Source of the DNA: a virus
Lineage: Duplodnaviria; Caudoviricetes
Virus record (IMG/VR): IMGVR_UViG_3300030095_002591
Coordinates: 1-25,325 of that record
Length of the DNA stretch: 25,325 bases
Strand: one strand, 5' to 3'
Both the position numbers and the translations under genes were made by a program. The notes under the pieces were generated by a model. The model did no database searches. It had not been told where the DNA came from and saw nothing but the letters and a program-made list of their open reading frames with translations. Positions 3 to 23,714 of this stretch are shown piece after piece. Position 1 is the stretch's first letter. Every line of letters starts with the position of its first letter.

Positions 3-614
3 GTTTACGTTTCTCAATCAGTAATATTATGGCGACCTAGAAAAGATGGTGGCGGTATTTTAGCTCGTGCTGATGACGGAATTCACTGGGATCGACCAAG
101 CCAAGAATTTGAGGTAAAGCTAGACACTGGGCAAAAGGTTATTTGGAACACCGGAGCTACAGTGCAACAAGGTGGCTTAACTAATTTTGGTACTATGGAC
201 CCTAATGATAAAAATTCTTATCCAGCTGCTACTAGAATGATTAATATAATAGCGATGTTTCCAGAACACGTAGATCTTAGTCCAGCTGCTATTTCCTTAC
301 AAAGGTCATCTTTTAAGGTAGGTCAGCAATTTGTATCCAAATTAGCTATAAGTAAATTGCCTAGTTGGTCAAGGGTGTTTGATCTTACAAGTAGAAAAGA
401 CCGTAACTCTAATAATGATAGTTACTTTAATTGGCATTTTCAAGCTTCTAATGATACAAGTGGTACAATACCTAAAGCTAGGATTATATCAGAAGAAGAC
501 GTATCTACTTACAGAGGTATGTATGAGCATTTTTCTCAAAAAGGATTTGGCCTTTCTGGTGAAGATGAGCAGGATGATGCAGTTAGTGAAACTGATGATC
601 AGCCCAACTTCTAA
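3..614 (+). CDS. Putative single-stranded DNA-binding protein (5' end outside window)
   Basis: The frame of ORF 162..614 is open back to position 3 (VYVSQSVILWRPRKDGGGILARADDG...), so the gene starts upstream of the window. It has an acidic C-terminal tail ending in Phe (EDEQDDAVSETDDQPNF), as in T7 gp2.5-type SSBs, and lies directly upstream of the polymerase. Confidence 0.55.
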   Translation, partial: VYVSQSVILWRPRKDGGGILARADDGIHWDRPSQEFEVKLDTGQKVIWNTGATVQQGGLTNFGTMDPNDKNSYPAATRMINIIAMFPEHVDLSPAAISLQRSSFKVGQQFVSKLAISKLPSWSRVFDLTSRKDRNSNNDSYFNWHFQASNDTSGTIPKARIISEEDVSTYRGMYEHFSQKGFGLSGEDEQDDAVSETDDQPNF

Positions 615-661: not shown

Positions 662-2467
662 ATGACTGATGAATTACTTCAAAGACTTTCTAACTGTAAA
701 AAGGTAGTATTAGATGTTGAAACCTCAGGGCTTGATTGGAAGCGTAATTATGCTGTTGGTTATGTGTTTACTTTTTCTACCAATCCTAATGATAGCTATT
801 ACATACCTGTTCGTCATAGGTATAACAACATTGATAACTTTGATGCCCCGAAAGAAGAAACCTGCCCACACCCCAAAAATCACCCATTTGAAATGGACAT
901 TCATTCTATTTTTAAGCATAGGTCTATACACATCATTGGTCACAATTTAGCATTTGATTTAAAATTCTTACATAGACACAATATAGACATATCTAAGTGT
1001 ACTTTTGAAGATACGATGATTAATGCAGGATTAATTAACGAGTATAGATCGTCCTATTCATTAGAAAATTGTTGTATAGATGCTGGTGTACAGCCTAAAA
1101 AAGGCGGTGACCTATATCAATATTTAAAAAGCAAATTTGGTGGGCCAGATACTAGTAAACAGATGGCTAATTATTGGAAATTAGATGGTCTTGATGAAAT
1201 GGGTACAGAGTATGCTAAAGGGGATGGTACATCAACATATCAATTATGGGAACAACAGCAAAAAGATTTAGACTCTCAAGATCTTAGAAAAATATGGAAT
1301 TTAGAAAATAAAGTAATTAGAGTACTACATAGAATGGTAGTAAGAGGTGTTAAGATTGATGAAGATAGATTAAATAGCGTTTCAAACGTAGTGGCTCAAC
1401 GACTAGAAGAAGCTAATACAAGTCTGCCTAAAGATTTAAATATTAGGTCAGGCGTACAAATGAAAATGCTATTTGACAAAGCTGGTATAACTGACTACCC
1501 TATTACTAGTAAAGGTAATCCATCTTTTACTGAAAACTATTTACTAACTAGTGATCTTGGTCGAAGGATAGTTGCTTCTAGAAAATATGGTAATCTACTT
1601 AATTCTTTTATATCACCTATGAACACACACATATTTAAAGGAAGAATACACACTGAATTTAATCAATCTAGATCAGATCAATTTGGCACTATAACAGGAC
1701 GACTTAGCTCTTCTAGACCCAATATGCAACAAGTACCTAAAAGAAATAAAGAATTAGGACAATTGTTTAGGTCAGTGTTTGTACCAGATAAGGGTATGAT
1801 ATGGGGTAGTGTAGACTATAGTCAATGTGAACCACGATTACTAGCGCATTATTCAAAATGCAAAGTGTTGTTAGCTGGATATTTGTCTGATCCACCTATA
1901 GACGCACACACGGCTGTTGCGAATGCTGCTAACATTGATAGAGATTCTGGTAAAAGACTTAACCAAGGTCTATTAACTGGTATGGGTAAAGCTAAATTAA
2001 TTGCTGAATTAGGGGTATCTGAGGTTGAAGGCGAAAAGATTTGGACTGACTATTTCACATCAATGCCTGAGATAAAAATACTTCAAAGGAAAGCTGCTGA
2101 TAGAATGAAATCTATTGGATTTGTAAAAAGCATAATGGGCAGAAAAGCACGTATGGATAGAAGGTCTGGTTATGACATGAGTTACAAAGCTATAAATAGG
2201 CTATTACAGTGTGGTAATGCTGATATTATTAAACAAGCTATGGTAAATATAGATAATTATTTAGAAGCTAATGGAGACAGAGTAAATATGTTATTAAGTA
2301 TACATGATTCAATTGATTTTCAATTTTGTGAAGAAGATAGACAACATTTTAACACAGCTTTAGAAATAATGCAGGACTTTGGTCCTAAAAAGACTATTGA
2401 GCTACAAGTTCCAATGGTAGTAGATGTCGGAGAAGGTAACAATTGGTCGGAGGCCAGCTATGGATGA
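662..2467 (+). CDS. polA: Family A DNA polymerase with 3'-5' exonuclease (putative Z-selective DpoZ-type)
   Basis: Exo I (LDVETSGL), Exo II (HNLAFDL), Exo III (YAKGD), TGRLSSSRPNMQQVP, motif A (DYSQCEPRLLAH), motif B (RDSGKRLNQGLLTGMG) and motif C (IHDSI) are present. Start placed at ATG 662 after RBS AGGTG, because GTG 635 lies inside the hairpin. The DpoZ label rests on gene context only. Confidence 0.95.
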   Translation: MTDELLQRLSNCKKVVLDVETSGLDWKRNYAVGYVFTFSTNPNDSYYIPVRHRYNNIDNFDAPKEETCPHPKNHPFEMDIHSIFKHRSIHIIGHNLAFDLKFLHRHNIDISKCTFEDTMINAGLINEYRSSYSLENCCIDAGVQPKKGGDLYQYLKSKFGGPDTSKQMANYWKLDGLDEMGTEYAKGDGTSTYQLWEQQQKDLDSQDLRKIWNLENKVIRVLHRMVVRGVKIDEDRLNSVSNVVAQRLEEANTSLPKDLNIRSGVQMKMLFDKAGITDYPITSKGNPSFTENYLLTSDLGRRIVASRKYGNLLNSFISPMNTHIFKGRIHTEFNQSRSDQFGTITGRLSSSRPNMQQVPKRNKELGQLFRSVFVPDKGMIWGSVDYSQCEPRLLAHYSKCKVLLAGYLSDPPIDAHTAVANAANIDRDSGKRLNQGLLTGMGKAKLIAELGVSEVEGEKIWTDYFTSMPEIKILQRKAADRMKSIGFVKSIMGRKARMDRRSGYDMSYKAINRLLQCGNADIIKQAMVNIDNYLEANGDRVNMLLSIHDSIDFQFCEEDRQHFNTALEIMQDFGPKKTIELQVPMVVDVGEGNNWSEASYG

Positions 2468-2864
2468 ATTAACTTTACAATCTCGTATAGTAAAAGAAGT
2501 AAAGAAGAAAAAAGGGTGGGCTATTAAAATGGCTAATAGACACCAAGGTGGAGTACCAGATTTATTTATAAAAATGTACACTTTACCAGCTGTATTTATT
2601 GAATGTAAAAAAGATAAACTAGCACTAACTAAACTACAGATTGAGACATTAAAAAGGCTTCACGTAGCTAATATGCCAGCTGGTTGGTTATTATATAAAC
2701 CAGAAGGTAGATTTCATGTAATGTACGTTGGTGCTGATCCAGAAGCGCAGGATTATACTAAAAATTCTCATTGTATTACTTTTGCAGGTAATGATTGGGA
2801 AATAGGGTCAATAATAACTAGTATTAACAGTTGGTCAAAAATTGAAATGGATAAATTAGGATGA
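2460..2864 (+). CDS. VRR-NUC family PD-(D/E)xK nuclease (resolvase-like)
   Basis: Motifs E-x-x-LQ, GVPDL, FIECK and LTKLQ. ATG 2460 overlaps the 3' end of the polymerase gene. Confidence 0.8.
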   Translation: MDELTLQSRIVKEVKKKKGWAIKMANRHQGGVPDLFIKMYTLPAVFIECKKDKLALTKLQIETLKRLHVANMPAGWLLYKPEGRFHVMYVGADPEAQDYTKNSHCITFAGNDWEIGSIITSINSWSKIEMDKLG

Positions 2865-3160
2865 CGAAGCACATAAAATATGATTCTATGAAAAGGAGAT
2901 GGAGATTGTTACCATACGAAGTATTACAGCAAGTAGTAGATATTTTTGATTTTGGTGCAGAAAAGTACGGAGTAAATAATTGGAAAGAGTGTGATGATTG
3001 GGATAGATATTTTGATGCAATGATGAGACACGTAATTGCTTGGCGCACAGGAGAGATAAATGATAAGGAAAGTGGTAAGCACCACTTGGCACACGTAATA
3101 TGTAATGCGTGGTTTTTAATATGGGCAGATAATAATAAGGTGAAAAATGAGCGTGTATAA
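2861..3160 (+). CDS. dATP/dGTP diphosphohydrolase (DUF5664-type), likely dGMP supplier for PurZ
   Basis: Family pattern KYD-x-x-K...LLP...FGAEKYG-x-x-NW...Y-x-DAMMRH...W-x-x-GE-x-x-D-x-ESG-x-x-HLAH-x-x-CN. ATGA overlap with the upstream gene; adjacent to purZ. Confidence 0.85.
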   Translation: MTKHIKYDSMKRRWRLLPYEVLQQVVDIFDFGAEKYGVNNWKECDDWDRYFDAMMRHVIAWRTGEINDKESGKHHLAHVICNAWFLIWADNNKVKNERV

Positions 3161-4253
3161 ACATGAGTATAAATATATAAGAAAAGGTACAGCTTCAGTA
3201 TTAGTAGATGGACAATTTGGGTCTACTGGTAAAGGATTATTGGCTGCATTTCTAGCTTTACAATCATGTAATGAAGTAGATATAGCTACAACAAATGCTA
3301 GTGCAAATGCAGGTCATTGGACTAAATTTATAGAAACACCAGATAAAAATTTTTGTTGTTTTCATTTGCCTACTTTTGGTGTTATACAAGAAGATGCACT
3401 TATATATATCAATTCAGGCGCAATAATTAATGTAGATTTATTAATGCAAGAAGTAGACGAAATTGGTATTAATAGTAGTAGGATTATTATCCATCCTAAT
3501 GCGACTATTATTGACCAGTTAGATATAGAAGAAGAAATGAGTCAATTTTCACCTGCAACTAAAATATCCTCTACTAGAAAAGGTGTTGGTGAAGCTTTAG
3601 CTAGAAAAATTAGAAGAGTAGCTGACATTGCTAAAGACAATAAGGTTTTAAAGTCTAGATTTAAGATTGATAGAATTGATCTTAATGACAGGTTAAATCG
3701 TGATGCAAAAGTGTCAGTAGAGGTTCCGCAAGGACACAGCCTATCAATTAATGGGCAATTTTACCCTTATTGCACTTCTAGAAATTGCAACGTAAGTCAA
3801 GGTGTAGCTGACGCTGAAATACACCCAGTTTTTGTAGAAAACGTAGCTATGTCTCTTAGAACATACCCAATTAGAGTAGGATCTATTCCAGGAGAAGGTT
3901 ACAGTGGCGATGTATACCCTGACCAAAAAGAAGTAACATTTAAGGATTTAGAAGTAGAAGAGGAGTATACTACTGTAACAAAACGTGTAAGAAGAATTTT
4001 TACATGGAGTCAATTGCAATTTGAAGAAGCAGTCTCACTTAACAGACCTACTACGATATTTTTAAATTTTTGCAATTACGCTACACCAGAATTGTTAGAT
4101 GATATTATAAAAAGAATGTCTAAATCTTGTAAGACAGCTTTATCTTACCACCCAGACCTATTACTAGGCTGGGGTGCAGAGGTAGAGCAGGTAAAACCCT
4201 CACACATTAACTTAGATGGAGTCAAACCAGATGCCTACTTATATTACGATTAA
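3147..4253 (+). CDS. purZ: PurZ, N6-succino-2-amino-2'-deoxyadenylate synthase (PurA paralogue)
   Basis: PurA-fold motifs DGQFGSTGKG, NAGH, STRKGVG, QG-x-SL, YPYCTSR, RTYPIRVG, TTVTKRVRR and LNFCNY. Ser replaces the catalytic Asp of PurA GDEGKG (codon 3222-3224). NFxN (from 4065) replaces the GTP-specifying TKxD. Both changes are PurZ signatures. Confidence 0.93.
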   Translation: MSVYKHEYKYIRKGTASVLVDGQFGSTGKGLLAAFLALQSCNEVDIATTNASANAGHWTKFIETPDKNFCCFHLPTFGVIQEDALIYINSGAIINVDLLMQEVDEIGINSSRIIIHPNATIIDQLDIEEEMSQFSPATKISSTRKGVGEALARKIRRVADIAKDNKVLKSRFKIDRIDLNDRLNRDAKVSVEVPQGHSLSINGQFYPYCTSRNCNVSQGVADAEIHPVFVENVAMSLRTYPIRVGSIPGEGYSGDVYPDQKEVTFKDLEVEEEYTTVTKRVRRIFTWSQLQFEEAVSLNRPTTIFLNFCNYATPELLDDIIKRMSKSCKTALSYHPDLLLGWGAEVEQVKPSHINLDGVKPDAYLYYD

Positions 4254-4440
4254 AGAGACTATAGAAAAAAAGATACCTGTTACCAAAAATCAATTTGAAG
4301 TACACGGAGTTTGGTCTGAAAATAATGTTCATATATCTATTATGTATAAGCATAAACCTACAGGTAAAATATTTTACGAAGATTGTGAGCAAGTAAGAGA
4401 TAGAAAATTTGACATTGTACCTTTTAATATGGAAAAATAA
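4231..4440 (+). CDS. Small hypothetical protein inside the Z cluster
   Basis: Fills the purZ-datZ gap, overlapping the purZ 3' end and stopping 2 nt before datZ. GGAG at 4218-4221 favours ATG 4231 over ATG 4216. No recognisable motif. Confidence 0.6.
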   Translation: MPTYITIKETIEKKIPVTKNQFEVHGVWSENNVHISIMYKHKPTGKIFYEDCEQVRDRKFDIVPFNMEK

Positions 4441-4442
4441 AT

Positions 4443-4991
4443 ATGCAAATGCTTAATCCAATACATAGAGTATTACAATACGTCCCTAGGTGGGTTATTA
4501 TTAGAACCATAAAGCAACAGTCCGTAGCTGAACATTCGTATTATGTGTCTTTATATGCTACGGTTATCGCTAAATACTTAAACATGAGACTACAAGATAT
4601 CAATTGGATAACACAATACGCTTTAACACATGATTTTAATGAAGCAGTAAGTGGTGACATACCTACTCCATATAAAAATGCATTAATAGTCATTAAAGAT
4701 GATAAATTATTAGCAGTATCTAACCAAGTTGTTGATGAAGTACAAAGCAATGAATCTACAGACCTTAAATATTGCAAAGAAGTAGTAAAAACGGCTGATT
4801 TACTTGAAGCTTGTATGTATCTTAGAGACGAAGAGCATTTAGGCAATACTACAGTAGGCCCTTTACTTGCATTAATAGAGCAGAAATTACTAGAAATAGC
4901 TAAAAGTCTAGACACAGACTTGCCTAGGCTATTGCACGAAAATATATATAAAACGCCTAGAACCCACTTATATAGCCAAGAGGCGTTTTAA
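4443..4991 (+). CDS. datZ: HD-domain (YfbR-like) phosphohydrolase, DatZ-type dATP triphosphohydrolase
   Basis: Motifs VPRWVI, QSVAEHSY, LTHDFNEAVSGDIPTPYK and VKTADLLEA. RW-x-I and GDIPTP match the adenine pocket described for DatZ; located next to purZ. Confidence 0.85.
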   Translation: MQMLNPIHRVLQYVPRWVIIRTIKQQSVAEHSYYVSLYATVIAKYLNMRLQDINWITQYALTHDFNEAVSGDIPTPYKNALIVIKDDKLLAVSNQVVDEVQSNESTDLKYCKEVVKTADLLEACMYLRDEEHLGNTTVGPLLALIEQKLLEIAKSLDTDLPRLLHENIYKTPRTHLYSQEAF

Positions 4992-4992
4992 T

Positions 4993-6360
4993 ATGTATCC
5001 TTGGCACTTAAAAGGCACTCCGTATGCCGTTCAAAATAAAGCTTTAATTAAAGCTAACGGACAAAGAGGCTTTGGATTTTTTATGGAGATGGGGCTAGGT
5101 AAAACGGCTACTGCTTACAACGAATTTGTTAACCTATATACTATGGATTTAGTATCACAGATGATAATTATATGCCCACAGTCGCTAAAACAAGTATGGG
5201 TAGCAGAGGCTAAAGAATGGGAAGTAAAATTAAATATAGAAGCGTGGCCTAAAATTACAGACACGTGGGATATATTAGCTATTAATTATGAAGCTATGAT
5301 CGGTAAAGGGGGCCAATACATAGAAGAACAATTGCAGTTAGGGGGTACTTATCTAGTCTTAGATGAATCAATTCACGTTAAAAATCCTAATGCTAAAAGA
5401 ACTAAAAGGATAATAGGGCTGGCTAGTTATGCTTCTTATGTTAGAATATTGTCTGGTGCACCTATAGTAAAATCACCATTAGATATTTGGGGTCAATTTA
5501 GGTGTATTGGTGAATTAAAAGGTAAAAATCAGTATGCTTTTAGAAATAGATACTGTAAAATGGGCGGGTATTTAGGTAAACAGATAGTAGGAGTAAGAAA
5601 TCATGATGAACTTACATCAATACTAGATCAATCGTCTTTTAGAGCCAAAAAAACGGAGTGGACGGACCTACCAGATACGTTATGCACTACAAGAAGATAT
5701 ACTTTATCTGGAGATCAATATAAACAGTATGAAACGATGCGTAAAGAATTAGTGCTACAAGTTGAAAATGAGACTATTACGGCTCCAATGGTTATAACAC
5801 AGATGATGAAATTACAACAAATCTCTTCTGGTTTTATAATTGATGAGCAAGGTGAAATAAATGAATTAGTATTAGTAGATCAAAATCCTAAACTAATGTT
5901 AGTTAAAGAAATACTAGAAGAAATTAATACTAAAATAATTATTTTTGCATTTTATAAACAGTCGATTAAGTATTTAAGTAATTTAATGAAGCAATTAAAA
6001 ATTACATACTCTACATTAAAAGGTAATCAATCTGAAGAGGACCAAGTGCACAATAAGCAACAATTTAATGAAGGTACAGCTACCGTAATGATAGCACAGC
6101 TTACAGCAGGAAAATATGGTCACACTTTATTAGGATCAAAAGAAAATCCTTGTCACACTACTATTTTTTATGAAAATAATTATGATTTAGATGCTCGTGT
6201 ACAAGCTGAAGCAAGAAATCATCGTCATGGTCAAAACTACCCAGTTACTTATGTAGATATTATAGGCACATCATTAGATGAAAAAATAATACAAGCTTTA
6301 CAAAAAAAGCAATCTATGGCTGAAGCTATTGTAGATTCTATTCAATTATCGGGTCATTAG
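4993..6360 (+). CDS. SNF2-family (SF2) helicase
   Basis: Motif I (MEMGLGKT), Ia (IICPQSL), II (LVLDESIHVKN), III (LSGAP) and VI (QAEARNHRHGQ). Confidence 0.92.
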   Translation: MYPWHLKGTPYAVQNKALIKANGQRGFGFFMEMGLGKTATAYNEFVNLYTMDLVSQMIIICPQSLKQVWVAEAKEWEVKLNIEAWPKITDTWDILAINYEAMIGKGGQYIEEQLQLGGTYLVLDESIHVKNPNAKRTKRIIGLASYASYVRILSGAPIVKSPLDIWGQFRCIGELKGKNQYAFRNRYCKMGGYLGKQIVGVRNHDELTSILDQSSFRAKKTEWTDLPDTLCTTRRYTLSGDQYKQYETMRKELVLQVENETITAPMVITQMMKLQQISSGFIIDEQGEINELVLVDQNPKLMLVKEILEEINTKIIIFAFYKQSIKYLSNLMKQLKITYSTLKGNQSEEDQVHNKQQFNEGTATVMIAQLTAGKYGHTLLGSKENPCHTTIFYENNYDLDARVQAEARNHRHGQNYPVTYVDIIGTSLDEKIIQALQKKQSMAEAIVDSIQLSGH

Positions 6361-22832: not shown

Positions 22833-23714
22833 TTAAGTTGGATCACATTCAATATAGCCCACTAACTCTTCTTGCATTCGGGTAGACCCAATTGCCATAG
22901 AGTAGAAGACTTGCGTAGCGTAGTTCTTATCGTCACGCTCTGAAATTTTAGCCATAGGATCTTGACCAACACCTAAAAGGATACCTTTCTTTTGAAAAAA
23001 TAGCACTTTATGATCAGAATTAGAATCTACACCTATTAACTCAGTACGGAGAAACCTAAATCCTAAAAAGGTGTCAACTTCACCGTTAACAAGAGCCTTA
23101 ATAGAATTAAAGTCGGATGATGTAACTTCAGTTTGACCTAACAAATTTTGAAGTTGCTTTGCATTTAAAACACAAAATCGCTCATCATCATCTGCTTCGT
23201 TAGCATCAAGAACTTGTTTTGCAGCTCTTAATTTGCCAACATTAAGGCCAGTGTCAGCAGCAGGTGAAATACCTACTTGAACATCAACCGTATTGCCAGC
23301 AGTGTACGAAGTACTAGTAGACCCATCTACTCCTGTAAAAGCTGTGCCATCAGCAGCAGCAATTATAGCTTCGTCCATAGCTCTACCCATAGCATTTGCT
23401 GCAGCTTGAGAATATGGAGAAGTTGGATCAATAAGCATCCGTACTCTATCTTCGTTATCAATTAAATCGGCCCAATCATAGTCCGTTAAAGAAACCCTAC
23501 GTCTTGCGTGTGGGGTATCCATTCTTGGAGTATCGGCATGTCTTGACGTTCTTTGTCTAGCAGCCGTTTTTCCGATTTGCTCAAAGAATGCATTTTTACC
23601 TACTACAGTTTCAACTGTAACCGCACTACGTAAACGTGACCCTTTTTGTTGTGCAAGATGTTGCACGTTTGCAGAATATTGCTCTACAAAAGCAGTAGTA
23701 ATTTGTGTGCTCAT
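22833..23714 (-). CDS. Major capsid protein
   Basis: FVEQYSANV-x-x-LAQQKGSRLR, D-x-x-RMLIDPTS-x-Y, AMGRAMD, ALVNGEVDTFLGFRF and GSTRMQEE, typical of this podovirus capsid family; follows the scaffold gene. Confidence 0.92.
   Translation of the reverse strand: MSTQITTAFVEQYSANVQHLAQQKGSRLRSAVTVETVVGKNAFFEQIGKTAARQRTSRHADTPRMDTPHARRRVSLTDYDWADLIDNEDRVRMLIDPTSPYSQAAANAMGRAMDEAIIAAADGTAFTGVDGSTSTSYTAGNTVDVQVGISPAADTGLNVGKLRAAKQVLDANEADDDERFCVLNAKQLQNLLGQTEVTSSDFNSIKALVNGEVDTFLGFRFLRTELIGVDSNSDHKVLFFQKKGILLGVGQDPMAKISERDDKNYATQVFYSMAIGSTRMQEELVGYIECDPT

Follow-up and report, generated by a model that had tools for sequence, protein, structure and literature searches.

A purZ-linked lineage of phage family A DNA polymerases with glutamine and threonine at the aromatic positions of helix O

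The phage DNA analysed here (the window; 25,325 nucleotides, IMG/VR record IMGVR_UViG_3300030095_002591) encoded a family A DNA polymerase in which both aromatic residues of helix O were replaced by polar ones, with Gln at E. coli position 762 and Thr at 766 (Q/T). The polymerase gene stood in one cluster with purZ, and its relatives formed a lineage of their own that was linked to purZ. The same phage carried genes that, in other phages, are known to put 2-aminoadenine (Z) in the place of adenine, and by this analogy it likely had a Z-genome. The polymerase represented a third purZ-linked lineage, marked by Gln762 and Thr766, and we considered it reasonably probable that it replicates such a Z-genome and prefers dZTP to dATP in doing so. 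The features of the window are collected in Table 1.

Table 1. Features of the window that bear on the polymerase and its gene cluster
Feature	Positions	Strand	Remarks
Pam3 gp34-like gene, 3' part	3..614	+	PF23977; usual upstream neighbour in the polymerase family (synteny)
Family A DNA polymerase, 601 aa, Klenow-like	662..2467	+	Pfam PF01612 (3'-5' exonuclease) and PF00476
Exonuclease motifs I-III (D18, E20, D99, Y184, D188)	713..1225	+	All intact, aligned with references
Motif A (D385 catalytic, E390 steric gate; E. coli D705, E710)	1814..1831	+	Canonical
Motif B / helix O (R427, K431, Q435, T439)	1940..1978	+	Without helix-O insertion
Motif 6	2195..2224	+	Canonical N512 and Q516 (N845 and Q849 in E. 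coli); QCGNAD at 2207-2224
Motif C HDS (H548, D549, S550)	2303..2311	+	Third residue varies, with no tie to purZ
Small endonuclease-like gene	2460..2864	+	phrog_93, E 1e-9; no Pfam match
DUF5664-type dATP/dGTP diphosphohydrolase	2861..3160	+	PF18909, E 6.9e-31; phrog_801
PurZ (2-amino-adenylosuccinate synthetase), putative	3147..4253	+	phiVC8 and S-2L PurZ are the best solved relatives
74-aa ORF between purZ and datZ	4216..4440	+	No Pfam or PHROG match
DatZ-type HD-domain dATP triphosphohydrolase	4443..4991	+	PF12917; phrog_7076
SNF2-type helicase, end of the replication gene block	4993..6360	+	PF00176 and PF00271

The start of the polymerase was taken as the ATG at 662, with an in-frame GTG at 635 as the alternative. 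A GC-rich inverted repeat, noticed by eye between the gp34-like gene and this start (621-645), was possibly a terminator or a processing hairpin. The protein belonged to family A by its PF00476 match, its Klenow fold, the catalytic Asp of motifs A and C, and the Arg and Lys of motif B. Its AlphaFold model had a mean pLDDT of 90.1 (about 73-77 in the blocks covering 411-440) and superposed on Klenow 1D8Y with a TM of 0.83 and on phiVC8 DpoZ 7PBK with a TM of 0.80. Gln435 and Thr439 set it apart from the usual family A pattern, in which position 762 is aromatic or Leu and position 766 is Tyr; phage PolA has been typed as F, Y or L at position 762 (PMC6302109). An earlier note, made from the letters alone, had already described the loss of both aromatics. 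Its codon positions between 1940 and 2311 all proved correct on re-reading (Arg427 at 1940-1942, Lys431 at 1952-1954, Gln435 at 1964-1966 and Thr439 at 1976-1978), and the register was fixed in three ways. Namely, a phmmer alignment to Klenow placed Q435 and T439 at the motif B Phe762 and Tyr766, an alignment with 15 references placed Q435, T439 and S550 opposite phiVC8 L455, F459 and S583 (the residues named in PMC8599892), and the model helix 427-438 was unbroken. An alignment artefact was thus ruled out. The same was true of an assembly error, since contigs from other studies agreed letter for letter, X3 repeating motif B (1837-1998) and X5 repeating motifs 6 and C (2156-2374). In motif 6, N519 stood in place of the usual Ala (E. 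coli 852, counted along the phmmer alignment to Klenow); N512, Q516 and N519 were spaced i, i+4 and i+7 on the model helix 507-536, which by spacing put them on the same face.

Of 3935 homologs, the 120 best all had Gln762 and Asn519, and 119 of them had Thr766, the remaining one having Ser. The near-invariance of Q762 and T766 reached down to homologs at about 46% identity, suggesting strong selection on both positions. The earlier note had listed Q762, T766, QCGNAD and HDS as a single non-canonical set. The first two and the Asn of QCGNAD were indeed conserved, whereas its Cys was kept in 83 of 122 aligned rows and the Ser of HDS in 48; the other rows had Ala (58), Asp (15) or Glu (1) as the third residue of motif C. 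Because of this variation we left HDS out of the clade signature, which as judged from the alignments comprised Q762, T766 and N519. HDS could not be counted as a novelty either, as it is, by alignment, already known from the described phiVC8, Ghobes, Glenn and Spocter polymerases, and with 7 of 16 purZ-less relatives also carrying it, it was ruled out as a marker of Z. The intactness of the catalytic Asps, of the motif B Arg and Lys and of the exonuclease motifs, noted before for the window enzyme, held across the clade: D385 and E390 of motif A were canonical in 54/54 Q/T purZ clusters, and the exonuclease residues were invariant in every Q/T purZ cluster that covered them.

A strict co-variation of T766 with N519, seen at first in 67/68 cases, was broken by wider sampling. 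Gly occupied the 519 position in 18 Thr766 rows, and Asn519 was paired with Tyr766 in 9 of the top 85 representatives. These representatives (50% clustering, taken without gene context) included 18 Q/T, 18 L/Y, 14 M/T, 7 M/N and 7 F/Y polymerases, where the letters give positions 762 and 766. Several long members (P0125, P0127, P0132, P0135, P0151 and P0163) had an intein-like insert that ended directly ahead of the motif A Cys, at a site corresponding to that between Q388 and C389 of the window (1823-1828). In the L284 polymerase and in P0131, P0146, P0149, P0192, P0197, P0198 and P0207, Tyr replaced the His of motif C, a residue that has been described as conserved universally; one of these polymerases was encoded beside purZ.

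By trees and profiles, the polymerase was assigned to a third purZ-linked lineage, large and uncultured, that was neither phiVC8-like nor Wayne-like DpoZ. In an IQ-TREE phylogeny of 49 rows, a 32-row family (support 100/100) contained the Gln762 clade (Q clade; 100/94) together with Ochrobactrum phage OH. This family stood apart from phiVC8-like DpoZ (5 rows), Wayne-like DpoZ (3 rows) and phiJL001/HTVC023P, with the branching order among them unresolved. The window polymerase grouped neither with Ghobes and Glenn nor with phiVC8, ZP6 and SH-Ab 15497, and a union of the Q clade, as delimited from earlier trees, with phiVC8-like DpoZ was rejected by the AU test (p-AU 0.0014; 31 rows, LG+G4). Against NF038380 (DpoZ_1, cut-off 500 bits) it scored 325.4 bits, compared with 909 for phiVC8 and 939 for SH-Ab 15497; the polymerase of the purZ-less L141 scored 341, so the window enzyme did no better. 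It had no match to NF038381 (DpoZ_2, cut-off 350 bits) at E 0.001, where the Ghobes control gave 434 bits. Accordingly, a match to an already described DpoZ clade, which the earlier note had named as a possible objection, was not found.

The phiVC8-like enzymes (PolA cluster 18 of PMC10201439, NF038380, PDB 7PBK; including SH-Ab 15497 and ZP6) shared with the window polymerase a Klenow-type fold, active exonuclease motifs, PurZ, DatZ and dGTPase neighbours, the loss of Tyr766 and, in phiVC8 itself, HDS in motif C. However, the identity to phiVC8 DpoZ was 25%, its signature residues L455, F459 and G548 corresponded to Gln, Thr and Asn (N512) in the window, and its helix-O and fingertip insertions were missing here, as seen in the alignment and in the unbroken model helix. 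The Wayne-like enzymes (cluster 19, NF038381; represented by Ghobes, Glenn and Spocter) were similar in their Z-gene neighbourhood, HDS and a changed position 766, which is a property of both described DpoZ groups (PMC8599892, PMC10201439). In contrast, they aligned only partially with the window polymerase (22-26%), had Phe/Phe in Ghobes and Glenn, and accompanied PurZ0 and DutZ rather than PurZ and DatZ. The Leu762 virioplankton PolA (phiJL001, HTVC023P; cluster 11) were alike in a non-aromatic 762 and 29-33% identity, whereas they kept Tyr766 and HDE, formed a separate clade and had purZ in 0/22 informative clusters.

The only cultured relative that we found was the polymerase of Ochrobactrum phage vB_OspP_OH (QIG66084.1), the best cultured match at 34%, with its PurZ at 41.5%. 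Phage OH had a near-identical order of polymerase, nuclease, purZ, datZ and helicase genes, belonged to the 100/100 family clade and carried HDS; its polymerase was Met762/Ser766 and lay outside the Q clade. The accessible part of the phage OH genome paper treated its Z-type genes as nucleotide salvage (PMC7139368), and PMC10201439 listed the OH polymerase in its dataset, the accessible text not naming it. No Gln762/Thr766 polymerase or third DpoZ group was described in the literature searched, which included few subscription papers. Two new DpoZ homologs have been validated in bioRxiv 2025.10.22.683976 and might belong to the Q/T family, and the trees of PMC12884076 may contain the Q/T lineage.

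Our first set comprised 199 loci covering motif B, which formed 135 clusters at 95% identity. Among its 62 Q/T clusters purZ was present in all 54 informative ones, and the other 8 had less than 1 kb downstream. In every purZ-positive cluster of this set purZ lay 83-3518 bases 3' of the polymerase. The suggestion that the Q/T variant forms a clade co-occurring with purZ thus held. When IMG/VR was scanned with the motif alone, 52 matches were obtained; 43 were PolA, with purZ in 43/43 (repeat records included), and the remaining 9 were unrelated non-PolA sequences. In a GTDB scan none of 30 loci was a Q/T member, and the sole locus above 35% identity was Leu/Tyr.

The widened set had 314 clusters, and its tree was built from 150 (a near-complete core plus a high score or purZ) and 15 references. 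The family clade had 116 rows, 104 of them informative, where a row was called purZ-less if purZ was absent from 4 kb or more of downstream DNA or from the stretch up to SNF2, and short if there was too little downstream DNA. With purZ there were 54 Q/T, 25 M/T, 1 L/T, 2 M/N and 5 L/Y rows and the M/S row of phage OH; the purZ-less rows were 2 M/N, 2 L/N, 11 L/Y and 1 F/Y; and the short ones were 4 Q/T, 1 M/T, 1 L/T, 1 Q/L and 5 L/Y. Thr or Ser at 766 therefore occurred with purZ in 81/81 rows and in 0/16 purZ-less rows, while 7 rows had purZ with another residue. The worry that the Q/T set might be common in phages lacking purZ found no support in these counts. Outside the main groups, three Tyr766 polymerases (L314, L431 and L492) had a purZ-like match nearby (PurZ, PurZ0 or PurA). 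L228, whose polymerase resembled the phiVC8 group in its Leu/Phe pair, had no purZ match in 8 kb downstream, with 1.4 kb of upstream DNA covered.

Two purZ-less groups, L154/L146 and L452/L462, were nested inside Thr766 clades, and both had Asn766. The L452 and L462 records were 100% and 94% complete and lacked purZ; whole-record searches confirmed that purZ was absent from five records of 94% completeness or more and from two partial ones, with 3/3 positive controls recovered. Two IMG/VR scans gave no relatives of L154/L146. Fisher tests of the association (p about 1e-8) were set aside because the rows share ancestry. Of five independent contrasts between Thr/Ser766 and purZ, three agreed, none opposed and two tied (p=0.25), and under a Tyr versus non-Tyr coding 1.4 of 5 agreed. 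Thus the association was strong, with few events behind it and contrasts that were not significant. With purZ present in five Leu/Tyr clusters and in two Met/Asn ones, the Z genes can evidently do without Thr766, and since four purZ-less rows also lacked Tyr766, helix O was labile in this polymerase family. The Leu/Tyr clusters (L015, L128, L132, L368 and L465), with a canonical Tyr766 adjoining purZ, were natural controls for a non-selective state.

Z phages make dZTP from dGMP by a route that PurZ begins and dGTPases feed; DatZ removes dATP, and DpoZ prefers dZTP (PMC12884076, PMC8342488, PMC8599892). By this established biochemistry, PurZ would supply the dZTP of the window phage together with the hydrolases of MazZ-like and DUF5664 type, and dATP would be destroyed by DatZ. 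How the polymerase might contribute was suggested by Klenow, where Tyr766 and Glu710 account for a large part of the pocket that encloses the nascent pair (PMC3715850). According to Table 1 of that paper, the Y766A mutant had a Kd2 of 79 uM for A-dTTP versus 0.83 for the wild type (about 95-fold worse), 42 uM for T-dATP, for which the table gives no wild-type value, and 0.11 uM for G-dCTP versus 0.20; the table contains neither the C-dGTP pair nor Z. Y766A thus bound G-dCTP normally and A:T pairs poorly, suggesting that Thr766 could penalise two-hydrogen-bond pairs and so favour dZTP. Like Y766A, the window enzyme had a small residue at 766 with the equivalents of E710, R754 and K758 intact, whereas Y766A is an engineered single mutant with Phe762 and low fidelity. 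Y766A is a mutator. Y766F behaves as wild type (PMC3715850), so the Klenow analogy leaves the two described DpoZ groups unexplained. The F762A mutant of Klenow had nearly unchanged dATP kinetics (PMC13369328).

By analogy, the small Thr766 would withdraw support of the pocket from two-hydrogen-bond pairs. An incoming dATP opposite T would then stall in a partly closed state before the fingers close, and dZTP opposite T, with three bonds and its 2-amino group, would allow closure much as G:C does. Fidelity might be restored by Gln762, Asn519 and the intact exonuclease; a limit of this scheme is that Asn519 was not tied to Thr766. A preference for dZTP over dATP seemed rather probable, while the idea that Thr766 is its main cause was tentative. 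Equally tentative was the wider proposal of a third independent origin of a Z-selective polymerase, in widespread uncultured phages, that selects by removal of the helix O aromatics.

The polymerase could instead tolerate Z without selecting for it, as in S-2L, with DatZ and the DUF5664 hydrolase removing dATP; Q762 and T766 would then be a lineage trait tuned otherwise, for example to speed or to strand handling on the more stable Z-DNA. S-2L makes Z-DNA with a non-selective polymerase and DatZ (PMC10201439, PMC8342488), and DpoZ has been described as dispensable for full substitution (PMC10201439). The window had both hydrolases. In addition, a second assembly (L082) with an identical polymerase, which reached further upstream than the window, encoded a 770-aa primase-helicase-like protein (DUF5906, PrimPol-like; 509-2821) and a MazZ-like gene apart from purZ (3730-4218), so that the genome combined DatZ with a PrimPol-like gene. 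The presence of datZ in 40 of the 45 Q/T loci that were followed as far as SNF2, the five purZ clusters with Leu/Tyr polymerases and the non-significant phylogenetic contrasts pointed the same way. On the other hand, the near-invariance of Q762/T766 described above argued for strong selection, Thr766 was missing from both nested purZ-less groups, and some near-complete Q/T genomes lacked datZ. We regarded mere tolerance as possible and somewhat doubtful.

A possible sign of selection by the polymerase was the absence of datZ from 5 of the 45 Q/T loci mentioned and from 10 of the 20 M/T loci that were followed equally far. Three near-complete Q/T genomes gave no datZ with the Pfam model, which found the positive control, and two of the three gave none with a profile built from the clade either. 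The purZ clusters without datZ were L005, L007, L008, L104, L144, G001-G003 and ten M/T loci. In the datZ-less G001 a dUTPase-like gene was present, which might act as a dATPase in place of datZ. Such datZ-less loci also occurred among the closest relatives of L154/L146 and of L452/L462, the two nested groups without purZ, in which datZ may have been lost first.

It was also conceivable that helix O is relaxed across the family and that Q/T goes with purZ through common descent within one successful clade, without a functional connection. The spread of position 766 over eight residue types (Thr, Tyr, Asn, Met, Ser, Leu, Phe and Gly) in the top 85 representatives fitted this explanation, as did the tree, on which only 4 changes accounted for Thr/Ser766. 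However, the site was fixed within the Q clade without drift, and Thr/Ser766 was absent from the 16 purZ-less rows. We therefore judged this explanation quite improbable.

The adjoining synthetase kept the equivalents of phiVC8 S14, T262, F295, N297 and Y298, residues whose roles are described in bioRxiv 2025.10.22.683976. The defining Ser, which replaces the Asp of PurA, was present here and in 65/65 environmental homologs, and stood together with the T262, F295 and Y298 equivalents. Its score against NF038379 was 237.8 bits, below the cut-off of 300, yet this was its top NCBIfam match; Phe and Glu occupied the positions of phiVC8 W252 and G256. We thus classified it as a divergent PurZ, by its residues and not by the NCBIfam cut-off. 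The idea raised in the earlier note, of a polymerase tuned to another modified purine that the phage would produce in place of Z, could draw on this sub-threshold score and the Phe/Glu substitutions, but it was highly improbable given the PurZ signature residues, the helper enzymes of standard DatZ, MazZ-like and DUF5664 types, and the replication block, in which Pfam and PHROG recognised no further base-modifying gene.

As to the phage itself, its capsid protein (22833-23714) had 57-59% identity to those of the Pelagibacter phages EXVC032P and HTVC010P. Sequence reads do not tell A from Z. Restriction-site (palindrome) avoidance, taken as a possible trace of Z-DNA, showed no contrast in the Q/T loci (0.95 vs 0.99), in their purZ-less relatives or in known Z phages, and no RNA holder was among the matches listed.

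On the alignments and trees, this was a real and conserved purZ-linked Gln762/Thr766 polymerase variant outside both described DpoZ groups. The accessible part of the phiVC8 structure paper reported no single determinant of Z versus A discrimination (PMC8599892), and a 2026 paper counted two origins of the Z-polymerase trait (PMC12884076). The typing of position 762 as F, Y or L misses a sizeable phage group. The present family offers a natural series at position 766 (Tyr, Thr, Ser and Asn), with purZ present or absent, and the Klenow mutant predicts the direction of the effect; therefore the question can be put directly to a few purified enzymes. If selection by removal of the helix O aromatics is true, no DpoZ before this one would have had its selectivity traced to a defined residue, and the Tyr766 purZ-positive and Asn766 purZ-less relatives would serve as ready controls. 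The Q/T lineage may also supply a polymerase for making Z-DNA.
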